A DNA stretch of 56,074 nucleotides from Psammoneis japonica (GCA_008632985.1 QPGO01000078.1:310001-366074), one strand, 5' to 3'; shown: positions 5,301 to 54,506, numbered from the stretch's first letter. A program made the numbers and translations. Notes: a model not told the origin generated them from the letters alone.

Positions 5301-6036
5301 CACCCGCCCGCTCCTCCGTCCCGCCGATGTCGGCATTTTAGTCCCCCCTCCCGCCTCCCTTTCCGCTCCCTCCCGCCACCACTGCATTGCAGTGGATGTT
5401 GCCATCCCCCAAGCTTCCTCTCGCCCTCCTCCAGGTCTGCCTGCCCCCTCTTCTCCCATCTTAACTGAGGCACACCACTCGAGCGCGAGATTGAAGTTTC
5501 TTGGCCCCTCTACTTCCTCCACCGATGGATCCCTTGTTGTTTCTTCGCTCAACAACAATGGCATCTTTCTGCTCCCCTTCACTGTAGATCACCTTGGTGG
5601 TCTCGGCTGCTTTGCCCACCGCTTGCTCTTTGGTTCTACATCCTCCTCCGTCTGCTCTCAGCCCAAGCCACCCTGGTCCTCTTCCTCCGACTTTCGTCAC
5701 TCCGATGCCTCCTACTCCGCCTTCCTCTACGCTTTATCGTCTCCGTCTGCAATCCTTCCCTCTGCTGACTTCGCATGGCGTCGCCTGTCCGCCGACCGCT
5801 TTGGGAACACCTACCGCACAGCCAACCCATCCCAGTGGGCCACCCAAACTCTTGGCTACAACGTCGTTCTTCACCTTTCTACGCACATCCTCCGATTCAC
5901 TTCCTCCCTCCCTGCCCCCTCCTCACCCATACCATCCTCAAAACGCCCTTCGTCTTGCGTCCTTCGACCCTTCTACTCTACCGTCTCTACAGCTACCTCC
6001 GTGCCTCCTTCTGCTGTTCCCTTCCGCTCTACATAG
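2305..6036 (+). pseudogene. Zn-finger / reverse transcriptase / RLE polyprotein, inactivated by Tyr->Cys/His changes
   Basis: N-terminal C2H2-like motifs (CPFC..HLRQEH, CRHC..HLQNKH). RT motifs KLRPIGVG, QFGIG, LDLTNMFN, GFAQGCPLGP, CIDD (expected YxDD; 3997-4008), GISLNLHKT, FLGQPLG, LPASLGGFGL. C-terminal CPCG..DHAFSC knuckle and RPAD..AVDV RLE motif. Confidence 0.88.
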
Positions 6037-6215
6037 GCTCCCTTAATCTTCTATTTTAAACGGCAAACAGCAAGAAACAAAAAACATAGGAAACAGGAGC
6101 GGTTGAGTCAGTGGCATTTTCATCTGACTGCCTTTCATCGGACGCAATCATGCAACATGGTATGCTACTTTGAGCTGCGTTGCTGTAGACACGTAGAAGC
6201 TTTGATGAAGCTCTT

Positions 6216-9200
6216 ATGTTTGGGCTAATCACCACCTCATTGGCCTTGTTGCTTTTTCCTTTCGAGCTTTCTTTTTCCTTCGTTTCATCCCGGTCCGTTG
6301 TACAACAACAACGACAGAATATCTTGAGAGAGATGTCAAGCGGAATGGCTGACGATAATTCTCAAGCCCGCTCGTCTATGAACAGACTCACTTCCTTGTT
6401 GAAACGACATCAGATTGAGTACCAAATTATTTTGGTTTCTTCGAGCGGACAAGAAACCGCAACAAAAAGTTCGAGCAGTGTCATCTCGATAAAGACACTT
6501 GTCTGGGAAGCTTCACCTCAAGAAATCAACAATGGAGACTTTTCTCTTCAAGCGCCATTTTACTTTGTGACTGCCATAGAGAGCTCGAAGAGAGTAAATG
6601 AGAAGGTCCTGACAGAGATTATTGAATCAACATCAAGTAGTACCGGCACCAAGATGAATGTAGCACTGGCTGAAACGGCTACCGCCGAAAGATTGACGGG
6701 ATGTGTGAAAGGAACAATTCCTCCATTTGGCCATGTAGTTCCTATGATGAACCTGTACATTGATGAGTCAATTATTCATTCCGAAGTTTCTCATGTAAGC
6801 GTTGGGTCAGGAGATGTCGGGTACGATTTGGTGATATCAAAGGCAGATATGCTGCAGCTATGCGATAAAACAACACGTGTCAAAATCTATCCCATATCTA
6901 ATGGTAGCGAAGCCTCCAGTGTGATTCATGAAATACCAATACCCAAGCCAACAAAGAGAGCCAGTAAGCAACAACGTCCGTTGAAAAAACCAGTCAGAAA
7001 TTTGGGGAAACGATTACGTGACGCTGCAGGAAAACGAGGAAAGGGTGACGAAGTGCGAGAAATTATAGAGGAAATGGGCGACGACTTTCCAGCGTTCCTC
7101 AGCGTGGGTGCGGATGGGAACTTTACAAAAAATGCGTTGCATTTGGCAGCTTGGAAAGGTGACCTGGAATCTATTCAACTGATCGCAGACACGGGCAAAT
7201 CCTTTGGACTCGACTTGGTCAACGAGATAAGCACCGGCCAAGGTAACTACGGGAAAACCCCGGTTTTCTATTCCATGACTCAGTGCCGAGATGATGCTGT
7301 AAGGCTATTGGTGGAGCTTGGATCCGATTTACTTATCGTTAACAACAAGGGGCAGACACCTTGTAGTATGGCACCAAGTCATATGAATCGTACAACTTGT
7401 GAATACCTCTACAACATGGAGGCGAGGCAGCTCGATGCGGGTGGCACGTTTGTAAACTATCGTGCCACTCATTCGGATGGACAACAATACGGTGACTTGG
7501 ATCCGCGGTTTCCAATCGACAAGGAAAACATGGGAGCTGACATTTCGGACGAGATTGCAGCCTATCGACAGACTCTTCAGTTGATCAATGGCGACGAACC
7601 GCAAGACATACCACGTGGATCTGGATTCCCACGAAGCCTCCGACAAACCACCAGAGAGTCTCGAGAACAGCGCGGTCTTGGTTATCGAGTGAAAACGATT
7701 CGCGAAGAAACGAAAAAGGACAGAAGCATTGTCCCTCGGGAAGAACGGCAAGAAAGTCCAACACCAAAGCCGTCTGCCGGTCGAAGAAGGAAGAAAACCG
7801 CGGTAGCACCACCGCCGGTGATAGATGTGACGAATTTAGACGTGTTGAGAATAGCAGATGTCTTGAAGGGAGACCCTGTTATAGTTGATAATGATCAGGG
7901 GATAGAAGAACTCTCTCTGTGTATTGATATTTCAGTAGCAATGGATGCCGAGAATCATCCTCACGAGACAACCAAGAAGCACTATCCATCGGATGAGTAT
8001 ATAGCAAAGCATTGCTGGGGGCTCGACTGTGAATGGAAACCAGCATATGAAAAAGGGCAGGACCATCCGGTTGCAACCCTTCAACTAGGTACCCATGACT
8101 TTGCCTTTTTGGTTGACGTACAGCAGCTATGCCAGGCCAATATCAAGACCTCGGACCATGAAATGACTGAAAAAGAAAAGAAGCTATCGAAAACTCTTTC
8201 AAGGCTTTTTGCGGATCCCGACACGACAGTTGCTGGATTCGGGATTCAACAAGACTTGAGCAAACTGGCAATGAGTTTTCCTCACATGCCATGCTTTCGT
8301 TTGTTTCAATCCGTCATTGACATTCAGCTCATATCACGAAATGCTTTTCCAGGAAGTCGCAAGGATTTTATTAGAAGTTTGCAAATAGCTGTTGCAGTGC
8401 TGCTCGAGCAGCGTCTCGACAAAAGCGAACAAATGTCGAATTGGCAACAACGACCGCTTTCAGCCTCGCAAATTGAGTATTCACTCCTCGATGCCATTCT
8501 TAGCTCCTGGTTGTTGACACTCATGGTTGAAAAGATTGCATCACTGGACTTGTGGGAAGGCCACTTTTTCAAAAAGCACTCGCACTTGCGAAGCACCGTT
8601 CGCATTCAGTTTCTAGATTGTCCTGGTGAGAACTCCATCCCAATGGCATATAGAGTCAGCATGGGTTCAGTGAGACAGATACTGTCTCTTCGTTTTGCTC
8701 GGCAAACGTGGCCAACAGGAAGGGAACCCCCGCCACTCCCAAGTCGGATATTGATAGAAGAAGCTGAGCAGCAGCCTCGACGAAATACGAAAGTTGCAAG
8801 CCGCAACCGAGATGCCAGTTCCCCTTTGCGGGCACAATCAAAAAAGAAAAAGGGAGTTCCGCTTTGTACACTTCCCGGAGACCATGATAACCTGCCTCCT
8901 GTCGGAGGGACGCTCGGCTGGACAAAAGATACATGCGTCGAGCGAATCTTGGGTAGGCAAGTCCTAAGTTCCATGCCTGAAGAGTTTAAGCTTCAGTACA
9001 ACCGTTGGGGAGGAGTCATTGAAATGTCAAACTCGTGGTTGCTCTTCATCAACTTTGCGGCTCAGAGGGAAGGATCTAAATATCAAAACAACTTTTCTGA
9101 TGACGGTCGCGAAATAACATTCTCTGTCAATCCCGACCGCCCTCAGGAGCAGGCGTTGGTTGAGTGCCTGACAGGAGATAACCAGAAAAGCGAAAACAAA

Positions 9201-15852: not shown

Positions 15853-15956
15853 GAGCTTTTATATAATATCCTATCGAACGAATATACTCCTCTTTTAGGC
15901 CCTACATTTCGTGGTTGACAAGTGCAATTCAAGTCAGCGGTTGCGAGTTGCGACCG

Positions 15957-16244
15957 AGTCACGAGTCAACAACCGAGTCTGATTCACGGATGACGCTTCC
16001 GGTCATGGATCTCTTCTTCCGGAAGAAATGTCCGTTGAGTCTACTAGCGATAGTAATCGGAGTGACACACACGACCGTTAGGTCATAATGTCATCTCCAA
16101 TCCCTCGTGAGATCTTCTCACAATTCGTATCTTTAGCGTATCTTATTGTCCCAAACCCACTTCTTATCATCCTCTGTTGTATTGTACAACCTCAAGAGAG
16201 TCCTGAACTCTCCATCCTACACAGTGTGTTGTTGTGTCCCAAGT
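15957..16244 (+). repeat. 5' LTR
   Basis: Ungapped direct repeat of 22912-23199 with 18 substitutions by manual alignment. Confidence 0.95.
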
Positions 16245-16256
16245 GGTTACGACCCC
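16245..16256 (+). other. Putative primer-binding site (GGTTACGACCCC)
   Basis: Lies directly 3' of the 5' LTR and resembles the GGTTATG-type PBS of copia elements primed by a tRNA fragment. The cognate tRNA was not verified. Confidence 0.5.
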
Positions 16257-19200
16257 AATCTGCGCACCGGCATCAACTCGCAGCGGAGTTGCTGCCACTC
16301 GTTCGTCTCGTTACAGACGACATCCCATCCAACGGCGATCTTCTATGTCGCAATCCAACGGCAATCATCTACATTGCAATCCCTGCCTGCTAATCGATCC
16401 TCTATGTCGAATCATCCATGACCATGTCCATGGATCCTGATGCCGTCAAGATGTTTGCTGAGGCCTTCGCCAAGATGCAAACCTCGACCAACCCTCCTGC
16501 GATCCCCACGCCGCTTCGCGGCGGCATCCACCACTCTCATGGAGTGCATCTGGGTGGTTTGGCTCTGAACAACAAGTGCGAGCAGACCGACACCCGCACC
16601 TGCTGTTTTGCCTCGCAACGTCGCCATCCAAAGGCTGTCGACTCTATCGAGCGATCTCTCAGAGATCAACTCGCTTCGGCAACCACATCCAAGTTCAACG
16701 GCCAGATTGAGTCATCCAACGGTTCCAGTGCTGAACTGGACAAAGACCACTTCGTCAAGACCATTCAGGACTTGATCGAGTCGCACGGACAAGAAACCTT
16801 CTGCCATCTCAAGAAAGTCGACGGCAAGGTCGTGTGCCTTTTTGATCATCTTCACGCCTTCACTGTCAAAGACCTTGAGAAGGAACATGAGACCCGTGTG
16901 GCGGCCACAGGTGACGAAGGCTACGATCAGCATGAAATCGATGACATCGGCTTGTCACAACTCATCGTCAAGTCACGCATCACCGAAACCTTCCGTGAAA
17001 AGATTGAAACCAAGTTCAATCACTTGAAGAACTACAAGGATCTTCCGGGGTCTGTCTCATTTATGATGGCTCTGGACACCTGCAACGCCAGTGCTCTGGT
17101 TGACGTCAAGGCCGCCAAGGAAAAGTTGAACAACTTAACTCTGGATGACCACCCTGGCGAAGACTGCACCGAGCTGGCAACCGAAGCTCTGCGCCTGCTC
17201 AAGATCATGCAGACGGACCATGCGTTGCCAGTTGAAACTGGGTCTGCCATTTTGTCCAAGGCATCAAAGACATCCTCCGAGTTTTTCAATCGTCAAGTTT
17301 TTGCCAAGCTCGACTCCGTCAAGCGCTTGGAGCGCAAATGTCGCTTGCGTGACCCGGCAGAAGTCCCCAAGGATGCCGACTGTGCGGATCTTGGACCTGT
17401 TGGCCTTGTTGGCTGGATCACCAAGACCCATGGCGAACTCGTTGGCGATGAAGATTGGCCTGCCTCAGCAGCCAAGCTCCCGGAATCCAACCTCGCCAAG
17501 GACAACTCGGAAAAGCATTGCTGTGGCTGTGGCAAGGTTGGGTGCACCAAACGCACGTGTCCCGCCTGCAAGGAGCAATGCAAGAAGGACAAAAAGGGCA
17601 CGGCGGACAAGTCCAAGGATGACCCTCCGGATGTCCGGAAGACCAACCCTTCCAAGAAACCACCCAAGCCGGCCTGGCGTTTCGTTCACAAAGGTGCCAC
17701 TGTCACCGACGAGAAAGGCACGACCTGGCACTGGTGCGACAAGTGTGTGAACAAGGAAACGGGCAAGAAGGGCATGCATCAAGGCCACTCCTCCGCTCAA
17801 CACACCGGGAAACCGTCTGTCAACACCGAAACCACCGCTGCGGCAAATTTATCTGCTGTGTCGGACCCCTCTTTGGGCATTCCTTTTGGTCCTCCCGAGC
17901 AGACGACGTCTCCGCCTGCAGACAAACCCTCTGACCCTGACGAGCTGGTTTGTTGCGGCATGTGGTGTGCACCTGTGGACGACTCTTTGAGTTCGACTCC
18001 AGTGACTACGACCGTCTCGTTCACTCCTGCTCCATCGGCCGAGAGGGAGACTACCGTGGCCAAACCCGCTCCCATCTTGGTTGAAACGGTTGACCCCGAA
18101 GACGCTGACGATCACTCCGAGCACTCCGACGCTCACTCCTCTTTTGACTCCCTACCGTCAGCTGTCGAGCTATTTCCGGCCTGTGCCATGCATGAGATTC
18201 AAAATCCGGACGTGTTTTATGACACGATCGCAACTCACGTGGAAGGTCTGTCCGACGACGTGTCAGACGATCTCGTTTCCGGGGCAAGCATCCCACCTTT
18301 CGAAGACAGCTACGAGCACTTACCTCCAAGCACCCAGTGTCGTGGTTTCGAATTTTACGATCCCGAACCCCAAGATGTTGATTGTGGCGTCGAGGAGGCA
18401 ACGCCGAGCTCTCGTCTTGAGCTTTTCTGGAACTTCTTGAAGCTCCGAGTTTTCTGGCTGTTTGCTGTGTTCTGGGAAACGGTGCTGCACATTTGCTGTG
18501 CGCCGATTCCTGTCTCACCTCGTCGTGTGCGCCGTAAGGCATTCATCCCAACCATTCACGGTTTCCCCTCTACCTGGATGGTGCTGACTGGAGCCATCAT
18601 GGTCTGGGCGTCTGTTTTCAACGGTCAGCTTCCCACGCATCCATTCTCCAATGTCCCCTCTCGCTTCTCCAAAGCTGGCTCTCAGGTCCACTCGATCATT
18701 GAAGAACTGGACGACAAGATAGTGTTGGATCCGGGCAGTTTGGTGGAATGCAACAAGATCAAGGCGCGACAAGTGCTTGCCGAATTTGTGGAGCGCGATC
18801 CGGACCATCATCTGAGCAAGAAATTCACGCAGCTCTGGGAGAACGACGTATGCTCTTCCCCAGGCCGCTGTGTCCCTCCAGCTCTAGAAGACCCCGAGTC
18901 CTACTTCGACACCTGTGATTCAGAGGAAGCCCTCGGCCCGCTCCCGACCGAGCCGAGCCACTACTTTGACACGGTTGAGGAGCTCTCTCCGGACTATTTT
19001 CGTTTCGACGAGCTGTCCACCAAGTTTGGTTTCGTGGACACCACTCCATGGCAAGACCCTGTGAAGCTTCTCCAGGCAGCTGCTGACGGAACCGAAGCCC
19101 ATCCCACTCACACCTCTGTGCAGGTGTTGACAGGCCAACGTTCTTTAGCACAACTCGCCGCCGACCCGCAAGCTTTGCTGAGCCTGGCACATGAGCGCCA

Positions 19201-20225
19201 CACCGTCACATGCGATGCTGGTGCATCCTCAGCCATCACTTACGATGAAAACGACTTTGTCGGACCCCCAACGATCCCTGATGGCCCATTGAAGCTTGGG
19301 GGTCTAGCAAATGGCTTAACCATCGCCGGCATCGGACCCGTCTCCTGGGTTTTCCACAACGAGGACAGCTCTGAGCTCGTCGTCAAGACGATGGCGCACC
19401 ATGTGCCTCAGGCCGGACAACGTCTTCTATCCCCACAACGCCTCTACAGCAAGGAACATGGCGTGACAGGAAAACATGAGGGAGACGAGGACTCATTTCG
19501 AGTGCACATTGATGGCGTCGGTTCGCTCAAAGTCGCGCACGCGTCAAATCACTTGCCGGTTGCGTCTGTGACCAACGGGGTGGCACCCGCTCCTCAAGTC
19601 AATCTGTCTGTGTTGCACGAGGACAACCAGAACCTCACCACCGGTCAGAAGCTCCTTCAAGAATGGCACTTCAGGTTTGGTCACCTGAACATGCCACGCA
19701 TCCAAGGCCTGCTTCGGGCCGAACCTTTTCTCCGACCCAAATTCAAGCATGCTTCGCGTTGCGACATTCCGCGGTGCGAGGTGTGCGAATGTGCCAAAGG
19801 ACATCGCCGAACCCTCAAGTCTGCCAAACATGCGGCTACTCCAGAGCGTGAGGGTGCTCTTCGAGCCGAGCATCTACGCCCAGGCCAAGCCGTCAGCGTG
19901 GATCACTTCGAATCCCGTCTCCTCGGCCGAACCTGCGACTCCTGCGGGAAGGCCTCGTCCCAGCAATACAAAGGAGGCTGCATTTTTGTGGATCATGCCT
20001 CCGGTTACCTGCACATTGAACACCAACTTGGTTTCTCTGCTGTGGAAACGGTGCGAGCGAAGCAAGCGTTTGAAAAGCACGCGATGGACCACGGCGTCAT
20101 CATCCAAGAATTTCTTGCCAATTCTGGCGCTTTCAAGGCCAATGCTTTTGTGCAACACATGCGACAGCACGAACAACGTCTACGTTTTTGCGGAACCAAC
20201 GCCCACCATCAGAACGGCGTCGCAG

Positions 20226-21125
20226 NNNNNNNNNNNNNNNNNNNNNNNNNNNNNNNNNNNNNNNNNNNNNNNNNNNNNNNNNNNNNNNNNNNNNNNNNNN
20301 NNNNNNNNNNNNNNNNNNNNNNNNNNNNNNNNNNNNNNNNNNNNNNNNNNNNNNNNNNNNNNNNNNNNNNNNNNNNNNNNNNNNNNNNNNNNNNNNNNNN
20401 NNNNNNNNNNNNNNNNNNNNNNNNNNNNNNNNNNNNNNNNNNNNNNNNNNNNNNNNNNNNNNNNNNNNNNNNNNNNNNNNNNNNNNNNNNNNNNNNNNNN
20501 NNNNNNNNNNNNNNNNNNNNNNNNNNNNNNNNNNNNNNNNNNNNNNNNNNNNNNNNNNNNNNNNNNNNNNNNNNNNNNNNNNNNNNNNNNNNNNNNNNNN
20601 NNNNNNNNNNNNNNNNNNNNNNNNNNNNNNNNNNNNNNNNNNNNNNNNNNNNNNNNNNNNNNNNNNNNNNNNNNNNNNNNNNNNNNNNNNNNNNNNNNNN
20701 NNNNNNNNNNNNNNNNNNNNNNNNNNNNNNNNNNNNNNNNNNNNNNNNNNNNNNNNNNNNNNNNNNNNNNNNNNNNNNNNNNNNNNNNNNNNNNNNNNNN
20801 NNNNNNNNNNNNNNNNNNNNNNNNNNNNNNNNNNNNNNNNNNNNNNNNNNNNNNNNNNNNNNNNNNNNNNNNNNNNNNNNNNNNNNNNNNNNNNNNNNNN
20901 NNNNNNNNNNNNNNNNNNNNNNNNNNNNNNNNNNNNNNNNNNNNNNNNNNNNNNNNNNNNNNNNNNNNNNNNNNNNNNNNNNNNNNNNNNNNNNNNNNNN
21001 NNNNNNNNNNNNNNNNNNNNNNNNNNNNNNNNNNNNNNNNNNNNNNNNNNNNNNNNNNNNNNNNNNNNNNNNNNNNNNNNNNNNNNNNNNNNNNNNNNNN
21101 NNNNNNNNNNNNNNNNNNNNNNNNN
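20226..21125. other. Assembly gap (N run)
   Basis: Run of N. Confidence 1.
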
Positions 21126-22214
21126 GCATTGACACCTGTCTCGAGACGGAAACCTACAATGTCAACGATCCCAGGGTATGTGCAACTGCTAAAAAGCAAA
21201 AAGATCCCGATGTGCCTTCTTTGCACGAGGCCATGCGCAGCGATGAATCCGAAGAGTGGGCCAAAGCCATGAAAATCGAAACCAACGTGCTGCTCCACCG
21301 ACGTGCATGGGAAATGGTGCCAAGAACGGCAGATGTGAATGTGCCACCCGGCACATGGGCTTTCAAACTCAAACGACTCCCGGATGGTGCGCCCTTGAAG
21401 TGCAAGGCACGACATTGCGTTCGCGGCGATTTGCAGAAACACGGGATCGATTTTTTCGAGACCTGCGCGCGGCAGTGCAATGGTCGTCCATGCGCCTTCT
21501 CCTCACCACGGCACTCAAGGAAGGTTGGACTGCACGTCAAGTGGACTGTGCCACAGCCTTCTGCCAAGCTGACATCAAGGAGAAGGTCTGTGTGGAGCCT
21601 CCCAAGGGTTTCCAACCAAAATCGGGCGCCGATCTGGTGCCAAAATTGTTGAAAGGCCCACACGGCCTACGCCAGTCTCCCAAGTGCTTCCATGAAAAGC
21701 TGAGGGACGGATTGCTCGAAAGAGGATGGATTCAATCCGCCATTGACCCTTGTCTTTATTTCAAAAAGGGTGTGTCATGTGTGGCACATGTTGATGACAC
21801 CGTGTTCGCCGGCGCATCGGCCCAAGCCTTGGAAGCAGAGATTGCCAAGTTGGGCATTTCCAACGATGAGCAACGCCATGTCTTTGATCTACGTGATGAA
21901 GGCGAAGTCGGCAACTTTCTGGGTGTCAAGATTCAAAAGCTCGAAGACGGCCGATTCCTCCTGACCCAACCCGGCCTAATTGAGAAAGTTCTCCGAACCG
22001 CACAGATGACTGAGTGCAACGGCGCACCCACTCCTGCCTTGCCTGCTCCTGCTGGCAGCGATGCCGACGGGCCACCGTTCGAAGAGCCTTATGACCACCG
22101 TTCCGTGGTCGGCATGCTGATGCATCTAGCATCCAACAGCCGCCCGGACATTGCTTGCGCGACCCATCAAGTCGCACGGTTCTCCTGCGCACCCAAGGCC
22201 TCCCACGCTGCGGC

Positions 22215-22560
22215 NNNNNNNNNNNNNNNNNNNNNNNNNNNNNNNNNNNNNNNNNNNNNNNNNNNNNNNNNNNNNNNNNNNNNNNNNNNNNNNNNNNNNN
22301 NNNNNNNNNNNNNNNNNNNNNNNNNNNNNNNNNNNNNNNNNNNNNNNNNNNNNNNNNNNNNNNNNNNNNNNNNNNNNNNNNNNNNNNNNNNNNNNNNNNN
22401 NNNNNNNNNNNNNNNNNNNNNNNNNNNNNNNNNNNNNNNNNNNNNNNNNNNNNNNNNNNNNNNNNNNNNNNNNNNNNNNNNNNNNNNNNNNNNNNNNNNN
22501 NNNNNNNNNNNNNNNNNNNNNNNNNNNNNNNNNNNNNNNNNNNNNNNNNNNNNNNNNNNN
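22215..22560. other. Assembly gap (N run)
   Basis: Run of N. Confidence 1.
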
Positions 22561-22902
22561 GACATTTCGACACATTCGAAGGCTTTCCGACACGCCAACG
22601 ACGGAACTGAGGATTCTCCCATTGACTCTGCTGACCTCCCAGCATCCGTTGTGTGTGAAGACAATGCTGCCTGCCTCCAACTCGCCCGCATGCCAAAATC
22701 ATCCCCACGAACCAAGCACATCGGCATTCCCTGCCATTGGTTTCGCACTGAAGTTGAGGCTTTGGAGATCAAAATTGAGCCTGTGAGCTCAGCTGCACAG
22801 CTTGCTGACCAGTTTGCTAAAGGATTGACTGTTGATCTATTCCGCACTGGTCGTAAAGCCCTCATGGGCTGGTGACTGATGGCTCTCCTTCTCTTTTCGG
22901 TT

Positions 22903-22911
22903 GAGAGGGAG
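22903..22911 (+). other. Polypurine tract (GAGAGGGAG)
   Basis: Purine run abutting the 3' LTR. Confidence 0.85.
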
Positions 22912-23199
22912 AGTCACGAGTCAACAACCGAGTCTGATTCACGGATGACGCTTCCGGTCATGGATCTCTTCTTCCGGAAGAAATGTCCGTTGAGTCCACT
23001 AGCGACAGCAATCGGAGTGACACACACGACCGTCAGGTCACAATGTCATCTCCAATCCCTCGTGAGATCTTCTCACAATTCGCATCTTTGGCGCATCTCA
23101 TTGTCCCAAACCTGCTTCTCATCATCCTCTGTTGCACTGCACAACCTCAAGAGAGTCCTGAACTCTCCATCCTACACAGTGTATTGTTGCATCCCAAGT
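22912..23199 (+). repeat. 3' LTR
   Basis: Direct repeat of 15957-16244, followed by the TSD GACCG. Confidence 0.95.
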
Positions 23200-23425
23200 G
23201 ACCGAATCGATGATGTCTGATGTCGTGTCAAAACCAAAATAATGCGCTTGCGCAGAAAGACACTGCTCCAGTGCGGATCGGTCGCCGCAAAAGCGCGTGG
23301 ATACTTCTTCTACATAGATAGATGCACTCCCAACTGGGAGGTCTGTAAGTGGTACGGAAGAGAGAAGGAGAAGACCTCCCACGGATCGTACGTACCGGTA
23401 TGGTACCGTAGACCTAATCTAACTA

Positions 23426-25631: not shown

Positions 25632-26570
25632 CCCTTTGACACATGAAATTGCTCATTTGGGGCCAGGCCCCAAATGAGAATTTAACGGTCAGACATTTTG
25701 TCTGACGAAATCTTGACGACCACGATTTGAGCACGACGCCTGCTCTTGCGAACGGGAACCACGACGACTCGACAATGGCGGTTTCAGGACGCGAGACCCC
25801 ATTCACTCTCCATTCTGACAGGTCTTCACAGCACAAACTCTGTGCATTTATGTGTGTCTGTTTGGCCAATGCTTTAGCCACACAACTGTTTTCCATCCGA
25901 ATCAACGGTGTGTCAATCACAGACGAGTGACAACACGGCAAATCAGGGGGAAATTGACAATGTCAGGTTAGCGACACGGCGACCACCTTGTCGTTGTCTG
26001 AGACAAGTGAAAACAACACGATCAAAACAACCATGCTCAATTCAATCTAAATCGCAACTTTCATGTTGATTGTTGGTCATTTTGGTGCCGTAAGATTTGA
26101 CTTTGCGTCAACCAGCAAAAACAAGAATCGAACTTATGGTGGTTTGACATTTGTTGCCATGTGGCACTTTCAACCATTCCTTTTCATTTTTTGTTTCCAC
26201 CAACAAACAATTCTGAAATCTGAGATTCCTGCGTGACGGTTGCAGCTTTCCCGCCATTTTCTCCGGCCGCCGAAATGGCGGTCGAGTCGCCATCTTTGGA
26301 CGCTGTTGCGGAGGCAAAAAATCTCGTTTTCTCGTCTGATTTTTCGCGTGTGATCGCTCAACACACCAGTGCAACAATCGACGTAAACAGCCATGAAAAT
26401 CTTTCAATGCCTCGAGCACATTGTCACTCGAACCTTGTTTGGGGCCAGGCCCCAAGCGATTTAGCCGTTGTTTTCCCGCCAAAATTTGCTTGTGGATTTG
26501 TTTGTTTAGACCAATCAGGATGGCGCATTGTTTGGGGCCAGGCCCCAAACAGTGGCCATGTGTCAAAGGG
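25632..26570. mobile_element. piggyBac-type non-autonomous DNA transposon (939 bp)
   Basis: Perfect 14-bp TIR CCCTTTGACACATG (25632-25645) / CATGTGTCAAAGGG (26557-26570). TTAA at 25628-31 and TTGA at 26571-74. Subterminal palindromes TTGGGGCC-A-GGCCCCAA centred at 25665, 26447 and 26540. Confidence 0.88.
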
Positions 26571-26627
26571 TTGAGGAACGTTCGCAGCAACATCATCTTG
26601 GCAACGGTGTGCTTTCTGCTGTTAATT

Positions 26628-27480
26628 TCAGTTGTCAAAATGATCCACATCAAATGGTGAGCAACCTGACATGAGGGCCAACTGTGTGATGTTGGCCACA
26701 GCATGAAACACATGGCAATGTGTTTCCTTCGCGTGGTGGCATCTTTGCTTGAGCACTCCAAAATGCTTGGACCATCCATTGACAGCCTCACACCTTGCCC
26801 TTGCTGTTGTTTTCACAGCCTCGTCTGCATTTCTTGAGCCGGATGGAGTCGAGCTGTGCTGCTGGCTCCCGTCGCCGCAGCCACCATGGCTGGATGCATC
26901 TCACTGTCTTCAAGCTCTTCAATGATCCATTTGCAAGCAATGCTCAGATCTGGCAAACCAGCTGGGTGCACCCCATTGACCCAAACAATCCACCCTGTTT
27001 GAGCGCATGTTCCAATTTCATGCCGCAGCCCAGCACCGTGAAATTCATGGGAGAACCACATTGGATCAAATGGTGATGGCTCGTAGATTCTGAAATCATT
27101 GCCATTGAGTGTCGCCAAACATGCACCACCATCATCATCAACGAAGCAGTCTTCCCAGTGAATCTAAGAACAAGGTGTCAGCCCACTTGTTTCATGTGTG
27201 TGAGTCCTGTCTGGAATGGTGCGCACCAAATCCAACTGTCCAATGAGTTGAGTGCCCACCCAAACCCATTTTCTCAGCATGTCTTCATGGATTTTATCAC
27301 AGATGCCAGCAATGGTGACTGTCTCAGACTCACGCAATTTGAGAAAGCAAAGGGTGTGAAGCAGGTGAGTGGGCAAAAATCCTTGTGGCATTTTCCCGTT
27401 GTCAACAAGAAGCCCCCACAACTCAGATGCCACTTCTTCTGGGGTGCAGGAGCATGATGCAAACCAACATTTCCATGCTG
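26628..27480 (-). pseudogene. PIF/Harbinger-like (DDE_Tnp_4-type) transposase relic
   Basis: Frameshifted pieces PTHLLHTLCFLK..RKWVW, NGNDFRIYEPSPFDPMWFSHEFHGAGLRHEIG...TGWIVWVNG..PAG.PDL and ARARCEAVNGWSKHFGVL..VFHAVANITQL. Confidence 0.75.
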
Positions 27481-28102
27481 CACATGACCCTTTTGGCTTC
27501 TGAATGATTGTCTGTGCCAAGTGCTCTGTGGCCTCTTTGGGCAGTCTCATGATTGGCAATTGGCAGCTCACCATTGTGTGTCACTTCAGACTTTTTTGTT
27601 GTGCCGTTTGTGCCAGTCTCTGCCACTGGTGGCTGCTCTCTAGCCAGCTGGCAGCAGTGGTTGTTGTTGACAGTTGTGTTTTGTTGTCTTCACGCAGTTG
27701 GGGTTCTCATCAGAAGAGGCCTTTGGTGAGATTCTGTCATGTTTGAAGAAAATGGGGGAAAAAAAGCGATTTTGGTGTGGTTTCTGAATGGTGACTTCGG
27801 GACGTTCACAAGTGGCAACTTTGGGCATCGTTTTGTCAACCAGAACACGGCAGAACAACCATTCTAATGCATGCTCTTAGCTCAACTGACACAGCAGTCA
27901 ATGAGAACCCTGACAGTGAGTTTTGATTGTCACCACACACATGCATGCATTCAAAACAATTGTGAGTGATGTCACTCTGATGCTGATGTGTGCATTTTCA
28001 TTTTGACCACACCGCTTGCACTGTGTTCTTTTTTTTTCATTGGGCCACAGACACCAACAATGGCAATGAAGAGCTTTTCTCAGGTGGCTTTGACAGCACT
28101 CA

Positions 28103-28999
28103 TTGATGGCATTGGCTCCAGCTCCTGCAAACAACAACGATGCTGCTGCTGTTGTGAATGGAGCTGGTGTTGCTTCTGTGGTGGAGGCACGTGGTGGTGG
28201 GCAAGCCCATGGTTTTGCAAGCCACTTGCAAGGACTCTGTCACCAAGACCTCATGTTGGTCATTGTGGCTCCATCTGGTGTTTGCACCACAGACCTTTCT
28301 GGTGTCCAGCTGTCTGTTGTGAGCAATGGGTGGATGCTCAGTTACGTCTCCCAGTTGCCACAGCACTCCATGGACATGGACGCTCTCCATGCAGTTCTCA
28401 TTGATGAAGCCACTGCCCAAGGGGGGAACCATGGTGGTGATGATGAACTCTGTGATGTCTTTAAGTGCCTTGAAGCTCTTTCAGATGAGCTGTCTTCAAT
28501 GAGGCAGTCTGACTCTGAGGTCCTGTCTTCCACGGCCCTCGTGCCCTTGCCAATCCAGGTCTCCAGGAAAATCAACAAGGTTCATTTGTTGGGTGGTCGC
28601 GATGGGTCCAGGGTCATTCATGTGGACCTCAAGTTGGAAGATTTGACATGCTGCACTGTGGAGAATCCAAAAGTCAAGTTGATTGATGCTGCAGGTGACG
28701 GTGTTGGACTCATTGGCTGCAATCAGGAGCTGGATGCCAGTGGACAGGATGCACGTGCATTTGACACAATGCACAGATTGGGATTTGGGATCACACCCAG
28801 GCCATCCAGCTGTTCCTCCCAGCCAGAAGAAGAAGAGAAAAGGAAAAGAAAGCAAAAAACAAACATCAATGAAGTTTTGACACGGCGCTGCAGTGCCGCA
28901 GCACCCAGTGCAGACGGACGCATGCAGGCACAGATGTGCCACGCACCGGCAGCAAGGGCACGCGCCGTGGCACGACAAGTGGTGGAGGCGGGCCGTTGA
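28103..28999 (+). pseudogene. Decayed ORF, possibly the accessory gene of the adjacent Harbinger-like element
   Basis: Protein-like core (LVIVAPSGV..LHAV..FKCLEAL..VPLPIQV..RVIHVDL) divergent from the transposase and inside the hypermutated block. Ends uncertain. Confidence 0.3.
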
Positions 29000-31399
29000 G
29001 CAACTCGGGAGTGGCAGGGTGCATTGCGCACATCAAATTTGGTGCGAGGTGTCACATGTTTGCGCGCGCAGCAGAAGGACGGGGATTGTCAATGCCTGGA
29101 ACACAGCACACAGCAGCAAGCACACCACCTCATCATCATGATGTCAATGTTGTTGCTTTAGAAACGGCTGAATGGCAGAGGAGAACATCGTTCCATCTGT
29201 CAAAGCAGAGGATGTGACAGCTCTGGAAGTTGCAGCAGATCTCATGGGCGCCAAAGGCATGACTGCAGCGGCAGCAGCCATGACTGCACTCGGCGCCACG
29301 GGAAGTGCCGAGGGTGTGTCCGCCCAGTCCGAACGCGAAAGGATTTCGGAGAAGCCGGCGCAGTCCCAAAGTGAAAATGGGGAGAAAGCCGTGTCGCCAG
29401 AGCCAACCTTTCAAATTTGTGGTTTGAAAGAAGCACAGCAGCTGGGTTGCAACACCGAGCAGCTCATTTTGGCTGGTTGCAAGATTGAGCTTTGGGTGGA
29501 CAGGCCACCATCCTGAAACCGGAGGTTGCATGGACAGAAACAATGGAATGGGCGCAAGTTGCAACCAACTGTTTGGCAAAGACAACCATAAAAATGCGCA
29601 AATTTCGTACACTCAGACTTTCAATTAAGCTGCCGCACCTCGAATTAGACAACACCAACATGCACAGATGAACTCATGAAGCCTCACAGAAGACAGAACG
29701 GTCAGAAGGAAAACAACCAACACCACGCACCACTCTGGCCCCAAACCCCAACGCAAATTAGTCAGGTCGCGTGAGTTGCGCAGAAGTGCGCACTGTGGCA
29801 CCCTGTTTCAAAAAAAACAACCGTCGCACGTTACAATTGATTCGGACGCCCGGCACAAAACTCACTTGACAGATGAAAAATGCAGCAAAATGATTGGTGC
29901 AAGCAATCGTCACGCCTCTGTTTTCTGACAGTGGCAAGGGCGGCAATCCAAAATCTTTTGGTTTCAAACTTTGATGCAGAGGGTTCCACTGAAGAGAGGA
30001 GGAACCAATTGGCAACTGATTGGTGCAACAAAATGTTCTTTCAATGACAGTCTCAGCACAGCTGCCACTGTGGCAGCAGCAGGGCCCGATCTAGACTGTG
30101 GTTTGACTCGGTGATGAACTCGGTGGTGCGAGCAGTGCTCGCTCTTTGGCTTTTTGTTGTTGCATGTGCGTTGCATGTGCAGCATGCTGGCAGTCGTTGC
30201 AATCATCTGCTCTCTTTCTCTGGCAGGTCCAGCACAGTGCGGCACATGCAGCAGCTCTGGCCAGCTGTCCGCGGTGCAGGCTGGTGTCTTTTTGTCGAAA
30301 AAACTCGCAGAACCATGCGGAGACGTTTTTTCTTGCAGCTCCCTGCACCACTGCAGCACACTGCTCCAAGGAAATTGCAGCTGTTGGCATCTTTTATTTG
30401 TCTTGCTTTGTGGATGCAGTCAAGGGTCATCTGTCCACCGACTCTAATTCTCCGTGTGTCTGTTCTTCTGTCAGCTGGAATTCTTGCTGAAATTCTTTTC
30501 ATGCCATGTCACCCCACTTTCAAAGTTGTTGTTTTGGAGATCACAGGCCCATTGCTTTGGAGATCATGGGCAATGGCCACATGTTGGAACTGTTGTGGTT
30601 TGCTTCAGCAGCGTTTGATTGATTGTTTGGTTGAGTGTCGCCCCTGAGACTTGCACTGTCTGCCAGTGCAAGTGCACGGGAAACTCGCCAATTTTGGCAT
30701 TGACAAGATTCAGTTTGGGCAGCTTGTGATTTGGTCACCAGCAGTTTTGTGAAGACCATTGACTGAATGCTCATTGCTGCCAGCCAGTGTGTGCCATCTA
30801 CTCACATTCTGTCCAAGGTGTTGTTTCAGACTGAACATCCAACTGATGCATTGGCCAGGAAGACACTCAGAGCTCTGTGGATGCGCGAGCTTTGACTTGT
30901 CATGTTCACCCAATTGGGGCAACTTAACATGTTCTACACTTCTGTTTGGGGATGCCCAGACTGGAGCAACTGTCTGCAGCTCTGACGCCATCAGGACTTC
31001 CCTCTAAACATGCTCTGTGCCCTTGATGCCAAGTGCAATGCGTGGCCCCATCAGCTGTGCAGCTGGTCCCACCAGAAGGTTCATTGTTGATTCCCATGTG
31101 CCACCATCTCAGGCTCTGCTCCATCCGCCAGTGGCCCTTCTGAGACTCAAGACAGCTCTCCGAGTTTGCATTCACTGGTTGAGAATGTCCCAGATGATTG
31201 GTCTGAGTCCGTTGCTTCAAGCCAATTGATGGACATGGCTGACAACCCCAAGACTTTTGAGGATCAGCCTTCTGTGGCAAAAAAAACTCCACCTCCACAG
31301 GACAGCAAGGACTCAGGCAGATGATGAGTCTGCATCACTTTTGGTGCCATGCCATGACCACAATGATTTGTCTGATGATGAATCTGAAGTGGGAGACTG

Positions 31400-34300
31400 T
31401 GTGAGTCCAGATGAACACCAAGCTGTGCAGGCCATGGCTGCCGTGATGGCAGCAGCAATCCTGAAGATGAAGGTGTTCAAGCCCGAAGCTCCCATCATGG
31501 GGGCAGTTGCTTCTGTTGGTTCTGCTGAGAAGGTGGCTTGGACTGGGAGGAAGCCCAAGGTTGATTGGTCTGGTTTGGATCCATCCGCCTCAACCTCCCC
31601 AACATCTCCTGATCAGCATCACTTGCGCCCCGTCTCCACCACTCAGAAGAGCAAGAGCTGCCATGCTGTTGGACTTTCCACTGAGTTCACAAACAAGAGA
31701 GACCTTGCCACTTTTGAGAAGAGTGTCATGAAGCATTTCAAGGACTGTGGCTTGGATGCAATGACTCACCTCACGGACCCCAAGGACTCCGCCAAGATGA
31801 CATCTTGCATTGAGGGTCATCCCAGGTGCTCCAAGGCAAGTGTGGATTAACTTGTTGTGCCACAGGTCCTCAAGTGGGACATCTGCAATGTTGCCAATGA
31901 CAAGGATGCCACTGCATTCCTCAAGATTTCTCTGGAATTGGGTCTGGCTGTCCAGCTGGACCTGGAGGCAGAAGAGTTGGATGGTTTCCCAAAAGTTTGG
32001 ATGGCCTTGATTGTGATGCTTCAAAGCATGTCAATTGAACACATCAAGCAGCTTGAGAGTCTGAAACCCTCCCAGCTCTCAGGACAGGACCTCTTGGAGC
32101 TGCTGCACAAGTTCAAAATCACTGCTCAGGAGTTGGATGTTGCTGGTCAGTGCAACCACAAGTCAACACTCACCTTGATCAAGTTGTGCCTGGAAGCTGG
32201 TTGGGATGGTGAGAACAGACAGCAGTTCAAGCACTGCCTTTGGACCCTGAAGGAGGACTTGGATGAGGCATCAGTTGAGATTGCACACAAGGACGCTGCC
32301 TTGCTGCTGGGAAACTCACCTGCTCCCAAGTTGTTGCCATGATCCTTGATCATTGTTGCTTGTTCAAGGACATCAATCAGTGGGACTTGGCAAGGCATGC
32401 TGTGCATTCCAAAGCCACTCTCCTCAAGCCTTTGGAAACCCAGCAGCAGATCCCAACATTGCCTGTCAGCCTGTTGGGGTCTCCTTGACTCCTGCACAGT
32501 TCAGTGCTCTTGTCCAGCACAACAGTGATGCCGCCAAGAAGACTCCCAATGACTTGGCATGTCACAGCTGCGGCAAGCTTGGACACTGGAAGTGTGACTG
32601 TCCCAACAAAGCCAACCAAGGAGGCCAACGGGGCAACCATCATGGCACCAACCCAGGTGGTGGCAGCCGTGGTGGGCAAGGCAGGTCTCACAATGGGAAC
32701 AATGGCAACGTTGTACCCAACGGCACTTGTGGCAGCAATGGCATGTGCAAGTGGAAGAAGTTGGACAAGAGCCACAATCTCTCACCTGCTGACAAGGAGT
32801 CACTGAGCTGGCACTTTCATCTTGGACATTTGGGGTTTCAAAAGGTGCAATTTTTGATGAGAACGGGTGTGCCATCCCACTCTGAGGGCACTCATCATCT
32901 GCATGAATGTGCTTGTTGCATTGATTGTCCCCCCTCTTTGTGCTGCACGCCAATGTGGCAAACAAAAATGCCACGCAAGCCCTGAAAAGACTTCTCTTGT
33001 TGTCAAAGATTGAGCTGGAGCCTTGAAAAAGGACAAACTCCTCTTTCCTGGTCACCGTGTGTCCATTGATCATTTTGTTTGTTCCACTTGTGGTCATCTG
33101 AAAAATGCCTTTGGAAAAGAAGATGCAAGGCATTGGCACTCTGAAGGTGCCATCTTTGTGGATCATGCATCAGGCCATGTCAACGTTCAACATCAGACTC
33201 ACCTTCATGCCCATGAGACTCTTGCTGCCAAGAATGATTTTTTGAGGCTTGTTGTCATGATTTTGTTGTTGTTCCTCAAGAACATTTGAGTGACAATGGA
33301 AAGGCATTTACTTTGACCAATCATCATGTTCACTTGGAGTTTTTTGCTCAGATGTTGCAGCAGGCTGGTGTTGGAGCTCACCATCACAACAGGGTTTGTG
33401 AACAAGCAATGCACATTGTTGTGATGTCCATTGCAAGAAGTGTGTTGCTGCGTGCCATGATCCACTGGCCTGATGTTGCAGATGCTTTGCTTTGGCCACT
33501 CACTGTTTGTCATCATGATGTGATGCTGTGCAACACCATGCCCAATCCCTCTGTGGGTCTAAGTCCTCAGGATTGTTTGCCCAGACGCAGTTTCCTCATT
33601 CTTGCTTTCAGAACTGCCACATTTGGGGTTGCCCCCTGTTTGTGTTCTTGACAAGAAAATTGCTCATGGGCAAAAGCTGTCAAAGTGGAAACCCCGATCA
33701 AGTTGGCATGTCTGTGTGGGACTCAGCATCAAGCACACCTCATCTGTCCCGCCAGTGCTGAGTTTTGAAACAGGAGCCATCACTCCACAGTTTCATGTCT
33801 TTTTGATGATTGGTTTGCTGCCATTCCTGCTGATGTGGACTCATCATCATCTGCTGTTGGGTCACCTGAATGGGCTTCTCTCTTCAGTGACAGTGCACAT
33901 CAGTGTGACATGGATGATTCGGAGCAAGCAGGTGCAGATGTGCATTGGAACCACTCCATGCATGAGGCATTTACAAGAGGTTTGCGCAACTGTTGAAACA
34001 TGGTCTCACCTCCCAAGCCTCTTCAGGTGCCTCCTCTGGCTGTCCAGCCACCAGCATCCACATCCAAGTCTCTCTTGAGTCCTCCTGCAGACCGGGTGGG
34101 TCCCACCAGCATGACACCATCACCAATGGACCTTCTGCTGAACCTGTGTCATCACACTCATCTCAGAGGGAGAATGCACCCGCTGCCAATGCAACTCCAT
34201 CACCAAGTCCTCAGAGGGAGCCTCCTGCCCCTCAAAACCTTTTTTGATCTTGGTCAAGAGAGGGAGTCCCCTCCCACTCCTCCAACAAGCGCAAGCTGTC

Positions 34301-34400
34301 CTTCTCCAACACCAGTCCAACACTCTGCTCATGAAAGGTCGGCACCTGATTGCTCAGGTTGTGATGGATCTCAGAGACATGGCCACTTGGCTCACTTTGC
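31400..34400 (+). mobile_element. Second, heavily decayed and internally deleted Ty1/copia relic (gag, pre-integrase, integrase)
   Basis: Gag-like KHFKDCGLD..DPKD; knuckle CHSCGKLGHWKCDC; WHFHLGHLGF; PGHRVSIDHF, IFVDHASG, SDNG, HWP..LWP, WGCP, KWKPRS, TGAITPQFHV. No protease, RT or LTR recognised; limits approximate. Confidence 0.82.
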
Positions 34401-35184
34401 TGATTTCCATCATGTGCACAAGTTCAATCATGGACACAACATGTCCATGACTGCCCCGGCATCAGCACATGAAATCAAGGATCTGACATTGAAGAACTGG
34501 TGAGTGGGGAAGGTCAATGCACCACTGCAGATGGCAGGGAGTCTCTTGGTGCAGCAGCAAATCACACTTGAGAAATTGAGAAAGATGACAGAGCAAAGTC
34601 AGGTGTGGCAGTCAGTTGGCAGATTGCCAGCATTTGCTTTGGTCAGGGGGCTTTGTGCATGATGGAAGATGCCAGAAAACTGATGTGTGCAAAAGTGGGT
34701 TGCAGTGTCACTGGAGCAGCACTGCATGATCTGCAATGCAGTGACAGCTGCAACTTCTGCAGCTGGGTGCCAGATGGAAATTGTGGCAAGATCCTTCCTT
34801 TGTGGCTCAATGCATGCTGGTTTTTACACATGGGTTCGCACCAGTGCACAAAAACAACAACATTTTGACAATGGTGGTCCCTGCTTCTTTGGATGCACCC
34901 ATTCTGTGGCCCTCAACGGTGGAGCACAGCAAGAATTGGCAGTCTTCAGTTCAGCAGCACTGGTTCTCTTGAAAACACAGGCATCGCTAGATTCATCTCA
35001 CACAGCTTGCACTTGGTCAGAAGGATCCTTAGCTGTCGGATCCACACCGATACCTTTTGCAATGATGACGAGAGGTGCTGACAAGAGACGCTTTGTTTTT
35101 CTTAGAATTCATAGACTAGAGCAATGCTAGAGCACTTAGGGTTCTAATTCACCAACAGTGGCGACGATGCGGAGTCTGTTGGCG

Positions 35185-54474: not shown

Positions 54475-54506
<32 letters not shown>

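Follow-up and report, generated by a model that had tools for sequence, protein, structure and literature searches.

A dead Ty1/copia element in a probable diatom genome with an LTR pair that likely records TpA-specific A:T to G:C transitions

A Ty1/copia element in a TpA-poor landscape

The window, i.e., the whole stretch of 56,074 nucleotides that was analysed, carries on its + strand a Ty1/copia element delimited by two direct long terminal repeats (LTRs) of 288 bp, the 5' LTR at 15957-16244 and the 3' LTR at 22912-23199, identified by alignment and recovered as the same pair by a repeat search of the window. The LTRs contain 14 and three TpA dinucleotides, respectively, and are flanked by identical copies of the target-site duplication GACCG (15952-15956 and 23200-23204, read from the flanks), a 5-bp duplication being typical of Ty1/copia. 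Their ends read AGT...AGT, the usual LTR ends being TG...CA. Immediately 3' of the 5' LTR lies TGGTTACGACCCC (16244-16256, + strand), and immediately 5' of the 3' LTR lies GGTTGAGAGGGAG (22899-22911, + strand), which we take, from general knowledge of LTR elements, to be a putative primer-binding site and a putative polypurine tract, respectively.

A gag-protease-integrase open frame (16394-20225, + strand, first ATG at 16418), delimited by frame search and homologue alignment, runs for 1277 codons without a stop into an N run of 900 (20226-21125), across which the frame agrees, with tblastn pieces on both sides. Such an open frame is expected if TAA and TAG codons are destroyed and not created. 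It shares 58-60% identity with diatom copia polyproteins, its relatives including Fragilaria crotonensis, and matches the gag_pre-integrase profile weakly (20.8 bits, under the 28.4 cut-off). The reverse transcriptase (RVT_2, E 7.5e-25; 21126-22214, + strand), identified by profile search and homologue alignment, has an apparent frameshift near 21451-21469, and its catalytic YVDD reads HVDD at 21787-21798. It is followed by an N run of 346 (22215-22560), the frame being retained from 21451 to 22567, and by the polyprotein C-terminal end with the RNase H part (22561-22875, + strand; 57-58% identity to homologue C-termini). The element thus presents the features of Ty1/copia: RVT_2, an integrase upstream of the reverse transcriptase (an order taken from alignment to 61 copia polyproteins), direct LTRs, a 5-bp duplication, and primer-binding-site-like and polypurine-tract-like sequences adjoining the LTRs. 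Self-comparison of the window gave no other copy of the LTR or of the interior.

TpA density is normal in the first 160 bp 3' of the 5' LTR (6 TpA), falls in an abrupt step near 16404, from which point the gag-protease-integrase frame is TpA-poor, and is normal again from the 3' target-site duplication (23200) onward; within the interior, gag has suffered the heaviest TpA loss, with no increase toward the 3' end. TpA-poor transposon blocks amount to about 28 kb of the window (rho TpA 0.04-0.20), and include a block with an RVT_1 frame at 700-5580 (+ strand, 69% pyrimidine on that strand; rho TpA 0.15-0.20, rho CpG 0.7-0.8) as well as relic blocks at 25971-35050 (rho TpA 0.04-0.13, rho CpG 0.16-1.0, rho CpA+TpG 1.4-1.8; copia gag/pre-integrase and integrase remnants at 32764-34122), 37261-41250 (rho TpA 0.05-0.11, rho CpG 0.24-0.38, rho CpA+TpG 1.85-1.88) and 53241-56074, which continues past the window end (rho TpA 0.04, rho CpG 0.29, rho CpA+TpG 1.8-1.9). 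TpA loss is confined to transposon DNA: all five TpA-poor domains contain retroelement remnants or unannotated relics, the host genes between them are normal, and borders are sharp, with 37 TA per kb in host genes between blocks against 3.6 in relics, where rho TpA is about 0.04-0.10 and rho CpA+TpG about 1.7-1.9. Pyrimidine-purine steps number about 240 per kb throughout, CA and TG replacing TA and CG in the TpA-poor blocks. TpA poverty is not a family trait, since all 79 related copia loci examined from metagenomes have a rho TpA of at least 0.34 (0.34-0.88). A runs test on relics, element and host found no strand-coherent CA or TG tracts (z -1.9 to +0.9), so that nothing in the relics points to processive action on a single strand. 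The neighbouring host genes include PhyH and HSF, whose homologues reach at most 63% and at most 56% identity, respectively. Two leads suggest a diatom host: the copia relatives, and Bacillariophyta as the most frequent taxon in the Atlas.

Differences between the LTRs and their polarity

Alignment of the two LTRs with MAFFT, followed by a column-by-column listing, gives 288 columns with 18 differences, all of them transitions, and no gaps. Seventeen of the 18 fit a TpA pattern, being accounted for by 13 sites with TA in one LTR and CA or TG in the other, and two double sites with CA in one and TG in the other (columns 202-203, CA/TG in 5'/3' order, and columns 279-280, TG/CA). At the 12 sites where the 5' LTR has TA, the 3' LTR has CA at 11 and TG at one, and only at columns 271-272 is TA found in the 3' LTR (TG in the 5' LTR). 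The sole T/C difference outside a TA context lies at column 226, and the 14 CpGs of each LTR are all identical, i.e., TpA change has outpaced CpG decay. An earlier reading of the sequence alone had reported the same pattern (17 of 18 differences at TpA, a single T/C exception, neither indels nor transversions, about 14 untouched CpGs), and each of these counts was reproduced.

When 18 random transitions were placed on either LTR (20,000 trials each), a mean of 3.8-4.3 differences fitted the pattern, with a maximum of 13, and no trial reached 17. Among 12 terminal-repeat pairs from related copia loci in metagenomes, two of 25 differences fit the TA pattern. Scans for the LTR pattern in genome contigs and in viral contigs returned no match in either set.

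The LTR pair by itself cannot be polarised, and the direction of change was therefore taken from protein and family comparisons. At columns with at least 60% Tyr among the 61 homologues, the element has three His, one Cys, two Tyr and one Phe in the integrase part (seven columns), and four His, two Cys and no Tyr in the reliable part of the reverse transcriptase (six columns, among them YVDD>HVDD), two more columns having been set aside as they fall in the frameshifted N-terminal part. Thirteen of the 14 conserved His columns and eight of the nine conserved Cys columns keep their residue. Relative to the closest homologue (P0002), 27 of 55 Tyr are replaced by His (15) or Cys (12) and six are kept; the reverse change is absent (His>Tyr 0/48, Cys>Tyr 0/35, together 0/83), and three further homologues show the same asymmetry.

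For the family comparison, same-organism contigs were used, the family state being that of at least about 85% of contig depth, and 33 sites were counted among the 40 listed of 160 variable positions. At these listed positions, the family has TA and this copy CA or TG at 12 sites (five TA>CA, seven TA>TG), and the copy has TA and the family TG at two; the others comprise seven sites with CA in one and TG in the other, six with TG or CA in the copy where the family has CG, one with CG in the copy where the family has CA, and five other changes. Within the 5' LTR, family contigs read A where the copy has G at 16228 (93% of depth) and 16236 (89%). None of the 13 5'-TA LTR sites (12 T/C and one A/G) is among the listed positions at which the family differs at about 85% of depth or more, and a family C would have been listed; the family state at these sites is accordingly presumed to be TA. 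A family consensus of CA/TG at the LTR sites, which would have pointed to classical RIP, does not fit these data. Overall, the sequence comparisons support a direction from TA to CA or TG, the opposite of a RIP-like change from CA to TA. That TpA sites mutate far faster than everything else, as the sequence-only reading had proposed, is borne out by four independent kinds of evidence: protein polarity, family polarity, window-wide erasure and a published precedent.

Mechanism and competing explanations

The best explanation of this locus, and in our view a likely one, is a dead Ty1/copia element in what is probably a diatom genome, in which TpA-specific A:T to G:C transitions in transposon DNA have been recorded by the LTR pair. 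The chemistry would be deamination of an adenine preceded 5' by T, carried out by a candidate deaminase, ADAT2/TadA-like or of another kind, that may be directed to silenced foreign DNA and that would turn TpA into CpA or TpG according to which strand's adenine is struck. With TA as the ancestral state, about 17 TpA would have been present at insertion, of which 14 were lost from the 3' LTR (12 to CA, two to TG) and three from the 5' LTR (columns 202, 271 and 279), nearly all else remaining unchanged. The process, limited as shown above to transposon sequence, would with time convert essentially every TpA, while a slower, methylation-type decay would convert CpG, leaving all pyrimidine-purine steps as CpA or TpG. 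Divergence of the LTRs together with an intact target-site duplication argues for change in integrated DNA, and we infer action on the integrated chromosomal copy, as measured in mutation-accumulation lines of Bigelowiella natans (Mettrop et al., bioRxiv 10.64898/2026.01.13.699255).

Uniform action on an integrated duplex does not predict three features of this copy, namely the inequality of the LTRs (14 against three losses of 17), the normal TpA of the 160-bp stretch that follows the 5' LTR, and the 12:2 strand bias of the 3' LTR changes (two-sided binomial about 0.013), which has no counterpart in the relics by the runs test. Action on both strands, also claimed in the sequence-only reading, stands only if a local bias in the 3' LTR is allowed for. 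These features could reflect editing during reverse transcription, in which a deaminase, or biased polymerase error, acts on single-stranded minus-strand cDNA and leaves the LTRs unequal at integration. During reverse transcription the sequence that will become the 3' LTR is displaced and remains single-stranded up to the completion of plus-strand synthesis, while early plus-strand strong-stop DNA serves as the template for the 5' LTR; the excess of T>C over A>G on the plus strand of the 3' LTR corresponds to minus-strand adenines, and both the 5' LTR and the initial 160 bp past the primer-binding site have largely escaped change. The earlier statement that the pattern excludes reverse-transcription error or RNA editing was thus too strong. 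RNA editing followed by retrotransposition, for its part, cannot make LTRs differ and would affect the sense strand only. We nevertheless consider cDNA editing unlikely: the interior has TA>CA and TA>TG about equally (five against seven sites; Tyr>His 15, Tyr>Cys 12), TpA loss peaks in gag without increasing toward the 3' end, TA>TG changes occur in the 5' LTR too, and relics of other kinds of element lack TpA on both strands and show no strand tracts. We know of no natural adenine deaminase of such a type that acts on single-stranded DNA. The B. natans signature, as its preprint describes it, arises in integrated DNA-virus sequence without reverse transcription. The LTRs might instead have no shared history, the assembly having joined two copies or the 5' LTR region having been converted from a less mutated one. 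The abundance of the family (summed contig depth about 1,200-8,200 against 61 for the flank), short-read contigs that break inside the LTR (the first record ends at 15983), the two N runs and the sudden TpA step near 16404 would suit such a history; however, the same GACCG stands at either end (a match expected by chance about once in 1024), neither N run disturbs the homologue frame, as would be so for exact-length masks in continuous sequence, and the differences would still report the same TpA process. The chimeric assembly that the sequence-only reading had named as a possible undoing of its case is weakened by these observations, and a separate history of the two LTRs appears quite improbable.

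Classical RIP-like C>T change at CpA on the 5' LTR, with ancestral CA/TG kept in the 3' LTR, could draw on the repeated nature of the family and on the RIP-tract-like 12:1 strand bias among sites with TA in the 5' LTR. It is largely refuted and very improbable, as the indices point the opposite way: the usual thresholds are about 0.89 for TpA/ApT and about 1.03 for (CpA+TpG)/(ApC+GpT), and TpA/ApT is here 0-0.5 (0.08-0.5 in the element, 0-0.1 in relics) and (CpA+TpG)/(ApC+GpT) 1.2-2.3 in affected DNA. Moreover, no stops were created in the 1277-codon frame, Tyr>His/Cys stands at 27 against none in reverse, family polarity runs 12 to two in the opposite sense at the listed positions, and no 5'-TA site is among the listed ones at which the family departs from the 5' LTR. 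Selection against UpA (and CpG) in the element RNA would recall many RNA viruses, in which TpA and CpG are jointly suppressed with an excess of CpA/TpG, and TpA is indeed somewhat low in all coding DNA of the window. Yet catalytic residues fall victim to the losses (HVDD), which go furthest in relics with broken frames, are unequal in the two LTRs of a single copy and have no match in related elements elsewhere (rho TpA 0.34-0.88), so that such selection is hardly credible as the cause. A mutated domain corresponding to the transcription unit (U3 of the 3' LTR and U5 of the 5' LTR) agrees with the LTR columns but not with the 6 TpA found in the next 160 bp beyond the 5' LTR, and was rejected. 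APOBEC-type editing, which needs plus-strand G>A only, was likewise discarded, the LTR differences being T/C (12+1) and A/G at TpA, with no G>A excess under the supported polarity.

Returning to TpA-directed deamination of integrated DNA, a broader proposal, to which we give a little less than even credence, is that diatoms (or this one at the least) are equipped with a genome defence that resembles RIP but runs on the opposite chemistry, in which an adenine-deaminating activity would recognise silenced mobile chromosomal DNA and convert every TpA to CpA or TpG, fastest at R-TA-Y and slowest at Y-TA-R, outrunning CpG decay by about a factor of ten.

Implications and relation to known systems

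To date, a single account of a mutational defence that strips TpA from foreign DNA has appeared, a 2026 preprint concerning an unrelated alga, a chlorarachniophyte. If true, the presence of that defence's signature in a probable diatom would make the phenomenon widespread and not a curiosity, and would mean that retrotransposons are targeted as well as integrated viruses, here near completion. It would also offer a comparative route to the enzyme, through genes common to both hosts and missing from diatoms with TpA-retaining elements. Ages estimated from LTR divergence in such genomes can come out about 16-fold too high (18/288 against 1/~254 outside TpA), in agreement with the earlier warning that such dating overestimates age here. 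If its origin is shared with the B. natans system, the defence would be an old one across the SAR supergroup, and LTR dating there would be systematically wrong. The long open frames of dead elements here are accounted for as well, since TAA and TAG codons are lost in the process and no stops arise.

No account of diatom transposons losing TpA emerged from full-text literature searches; Maumus et al. 2009 (PMC2806351) does not use the words dinucleotide, RIP or deamination, and the lone match to "TpA" in PMC4504042 was the word "Tpase-like". In B. natans, TpA hypermutation affects integrated NCLDV and virophage DNA; of 231 mutations that arose de novo in two regions of integrated viral sequence, 230 were A>G or T>C, with all those AT>GC changes falling on TpA according to the text; reverse transcriptase and DDE domains are enriched among low-TpA CDS, and the authors propose an ADAT2 homologue, citing DNA editing by amphioxus and trypanosome ADAT2 (bioRxiv 10.64898/2026.01.13.699255). 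The words "diatom", "retrotransposon" and "LTR" are absent from the main text of that preprint (bioRxiv 10.64898/2026.01.13.699255).

As far as the preprint's text allows comparison, both systems share near-exclusive A>G/T>C change at TpA, giving TpG or CpA by strand, restricted to foreign sequence, and, over the long term, clustered windows depleted in TpA and enriched in CpA+TpG. They differ in that B. natans is a chlorarachniophyte (Rhizaria) in which single-copy integrated DNA viruses are the demonstrated targets, as opposed to LTR and other retroelements in a probable diatom; that its rate was measured in mutation-accumulation lines, whereas the evidence here is historical (LTR pair, relics); and that it has lost TpA to a moderate degree (rho TpA 0.45 for the NCLDV region), whereas here the loss is near complete (0.04-0.10) and accompanied by CpG decay. 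Ascomycete RIP is similar in being a transition-only, dinucleotide-specific chromosomal inactivation of repeated mobile DNA with sharp borders and inflated divergence, but it makes TpA from CpA and leaves AT-rich, stop-filled sequence, in contrast with the change here from TpA to CpA/TpG, which leaves DNA GC-richer and frames open. APOBEC3 is likewise comparable as a deaminase-type hypermutation of retroelements with dinucleotide context, fixable in integrated copies, but it produces plus-strand G>A through minus-strand C deamination, as opposed to A:T>G:C on both strands of the interior. Finally, ADAR and ADAT (TadA-like) convert A to I, read as G, and favour U/T 5' of the target, as would the activity proposed here, but are RNA editors by established function.

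The element and its terminal repeats

The element at 15957-23199 is a Ty1/copia retrotransposon, with an RVT_2 match (E 7.5e-25). Its integrase region (query residues 880-1277) shares 58-60% identity with copia polyproteins; the named ones among these all come from the diatom Fragilaria crotonensis. Both sides carry the 5-bp target-site duplication GACCG; a putative TGG-type primer-binding site follows the 5' LTR, and the 3' LTR is preceded by a purine tract. The adjoining genes are intron-poor and include an HSF-type factor and a PhyH gene, the latter with nearest Atlas clusters that are mostly Bacillariophyta. The protein collections searched contain nothing identical to the window's proteins, and on these leads the host is probably a diatom. 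This copy is dead: its reverse transcriptase has an apparent frameshift near 21451-21469 and its catalytic motif (21787-21798) is HVDD, not YVDD. Its long open frame is no sign of a functional copy, since TAA and TAG codons would be lost through the process proposed below. Across the two N runs inside the element (20226-21125, 900 bases; 22215-22560, 346 bases) the homologue alignments keep their reading frame, which suggests exact-length masking of letters in an uninterrupted sequence, not scaffold gaps.

The LTRs (15957-16244 and 22912-23199, 288 bp each) give a gap-free alignment in which 18 columns differ, 18/18 by transitions, and none of the 14 CpGs per LTR is altered, bearing out the absence of indels and transversions and the CpG identity claimed by the sequence-only reading. 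Twelve sites have TA in the 5' LTR and CA (11) or TG (1) in the 3' LTR, one is reversed (TA in the 3' LTR, TG in the 5' LTR) and two have CA against TG, while column 226 holds the sole T/C difference outside TA; the 5' LTR holds 14 TA in all and the 3' LTR 3. The difference counts of that reading are exact, and lie far beyond chance: 18 random transitions placed on either LTR give a mean of ~4 fitting differences and a maximum of 13 in 20,000 trials. As an external control, 12 terminal-repeat pairs of related metagenomic copia loci showed the TA pattern at only 2 of 25 differences. Neither LTR has a TpA in its first 85 bases (15957-16041 and 22912-22996), which may be due to chance or to loss at an earlier stage of the family.

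Direction of change

The LTR pair by itself cannot tell ancestral from derived TA, but four lines of sequence evidence (protein, family, landscape and non-inheritance) all give TA as ancestral. The protein evidence comes from alignment columns with Tyr in at least 60% of 61 homologues. This copy has His at three, Cys at one, Tyr at two and Phe at one of seven such columns in the integrase part, and His at four, Cys at two and Tyr at none of six in the in-frame reverse transcriptase part, a count that leaves out two more Tyr columns from the frameshifted stretch. Conserved His and Cys are retained at 13/14 and 8/9 columns, respectively. Relative to the closest homologue, 55 Tyr correspond to 6 Tyr, 15 His and 12 Cys, with no change from His to Tyr (0/48) or from Cys to Tyr (0/35); three further homologues show the same asymmetry, and an excess of Leu>Pro via CCA, Ile>Thr via ACA and Ile>Met points the same way as the Tyr loss.

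For the family, i.e., other copies of the element in contigs of the same organism, one contig set carries the window flank with no differences and covers the element at 20- to 130-fold flank depth, so the family is abundant. Among the best 40 of 160 copy-versus-family rows, 33 sites have a family state opposed to this copy at ~85% or more of the summed contig depth. The family has TA and this copy CA or TG at 12 of them, as against two with TA in this copy and TG in the family; seven are double changes (CA or TG in this copy, the other in the family), six have TG or CA for a family CG, one has CG for a family CA, and five are other changes. At 16228 and 16236, where G stands in the 5' LTR, the family has A. 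The best 40 of 160 rows include none of the 13 differing sites at which the 5' LTR carries TA, an absence that would fit many copies keeping T and not a T private to a RIP-mutated 5' LTR. Position 16043, A in both LTRs, is T in ~99% of family contig depth, a transversion confined to the lineage of this copy, which gave rise to the TpA that the 3' LTR has since lost.

With TA ancestral, each LTR would have held about 17 TpA at insertion, of which the 3' LTR lost 14 (12 to CA, 2 to TG) and the 5' LTR 3. These 17 hits on 34 TpA copies compare with one change in the ~254 positions per LTR that lie outside TpA; per nucleotide the rate is in excess by a factor of the order of 100. The apparent divergence is 6.25% as opposed to ~0.4% outside TpA, and the earlier warning that LTR-divergence dating overestimates age here is therefore justified.

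TpA depletion in the window and in related elements

TpA-poor DNA occupies ~28 kb of the 56-kb window. In the copia interior rho is 0.12-0.19 for TpA, 0.83-0.97 for CpG and 1.25-1.41 for CpA+TpG; in the relics, TpA-poor transposon remnants at 26391-35050, 37261-41250 and 53241-56074, the corresponding values are 0.04-0.11, 0.16-0.48 and 1.72-1.94. The relic blocks have 1-7 TpA per kb and low CpG, with CpA/TpG in place of both and sharp borders with host genes; TA per kb is 37 in host genes between blocks versus 3.6 in relics, and open frames within relics have no Tyr. The density of pyrimidine-purine steps remains close to 240 per kb, CA and TG substituting for TA and CG. Copia integrase remnants lie at 32764-34122, within the first relic block. 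All 79 related metagenomic copia loci have rho TpA of 0.34-0.88, so low TpA is not a family-inherited trait. TpA in the element is about one quarter of the level in these loci with CpG nearly intact, while the relics are low in both; TpA loss is clearly faster than CpG loss. Many of the 79 loci combine strong CpG depletion (rho down to 0.06) and CpA+TpG excess with ordinary TpA, and from their composition CpG decay without TpA decay looks to be the usual state of such elements.

Three other stretches stand out. At 25971-26620, rho TpA is 0.13 yet CpG is normal (rho 1.01); this segment, which may be a younger target at a relic-block edge, overlaps a minus-strand open frame (26111-26812) with no Tyr and no Pfam matches. 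TpA-poor positions 1-5580 are ~69% pyrimidine on the plus strand (GC skew ~-0.4, AT skew ~-0.3; per kb, TC 131 and CT 145 versus GA 28 and AG 16) and hold an open frame of 1253 codons that matches RVT_1 weakly and encodes a product with a very high content of Ser, Leu and Pro; this skew cannot arise from transitions alone. A 45-bp direct repeat of 87% identity (40801-40845 and 41034-41078) lies within a relic block.

Candidate process and precedent

The sequence-only reading, that the LTR pair records a TpA-site mutation spectrum, is supported in its main points and its observation is confirmed. Most likely, the adenine 3' of T is deaminated on either strand in silenced mobile DNA, and would be read as G at replication; such an in-chromosome process probably explains the changes in the element. 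A wider sequence preference is hinted at by the 56 TpA surviving in relics, compared with host DNA 1.7 times longer: ATAT (0 in relics, 79 in host) and ATAC (0, 138) are absent and ATAG (1, 104) is nearly so, and the survivors lean strongly to Y-TA-R, with CTAA making up 20 of 56 (60 in host), TTAA 9 of 56 (48 in host) and CTAG 5 of 56. Conversion thus seems most thorough at R-TA-Y and least at Y-TA-R, and the survivors may include new TpA from ordinary mutation. A uniform process on integrated duplex fails to explain three features: TpA is largely spared in the 5' LTR and the following 160 bp, up to a step in TpA density near 16404, changes in the 3' LTR are strand-biased (12 vs 2), and TpA loss peaks in gag with no gradient along the element.

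In minus-strand cDNA the 3' LTR part is single-stranded longest, and editing of this strand during reverse transcription, leaving the LTRs unequal, would account for both the 5' sparing and the 12:2 bias. We nevertheless consider it unlikely, given the balanced strand usage of the element interior, the TA>TG changes that the 5' LTR also shows, relics that are strand-neutral, and the case of Bigelowiella natans, where no reverse transcription takes part (bioRxiv 10.64898/2026.01.13.699255). Unequal LTRs would also result if the 5' end had been gene-converted from a less mutated copy or if the assembly were chimeric; this ranks next and is rather improbable, the chimeric variant being opposed by the matching target-site duplication and by the reading frame kept over the N runs. 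RIP-like CpA>TpA change acting on the LTR, for which we see very little room, is rejected by the four lines of evidence on direction; RIP indices run opposite to its prediction, and no stop codon was made over 1277 codons. Selection against UpA is given almost no credence.

The in-chromosome TpA process has one precedent. In mutation-accumulation lines of B. natans, two integrated viral regions had 231 mutations, of which 230 were A>G or T>C, and according to the text of that 2026 preprint all such AT>GC changes fell on TpA, at a rate ~1000-fold over background and in some lines only. Reverse transcriptase and DDE domains were overrepresented among low-TpA coding sequences, and the agent that its authors propose is an adenine deaminase resembling ADAT2 and directed to foreign DNA (bioRxiv 10.64898/2026.01.13.699255). 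The words 'diatom', 'LTR' and 'retrotransposon' do not occur in the main text of that preprint, and a full-text literature search returned nothing comparable for diatoms. The signature described there is the same, whereas the window represents another lineage, other targets and far more complete erasure, and offers historical evidence from sequence in place of a mutation-accumulation experiment. The window is therefore best placed with B. natans TpA hypermutation, as a real and rare case which, given that one precedent, does not form a category of its own. Its interest is nevertheless high: retrotransposons and a second lineage of major ecological weight are added to the precedent, and the enzyme can be sought by comparison.
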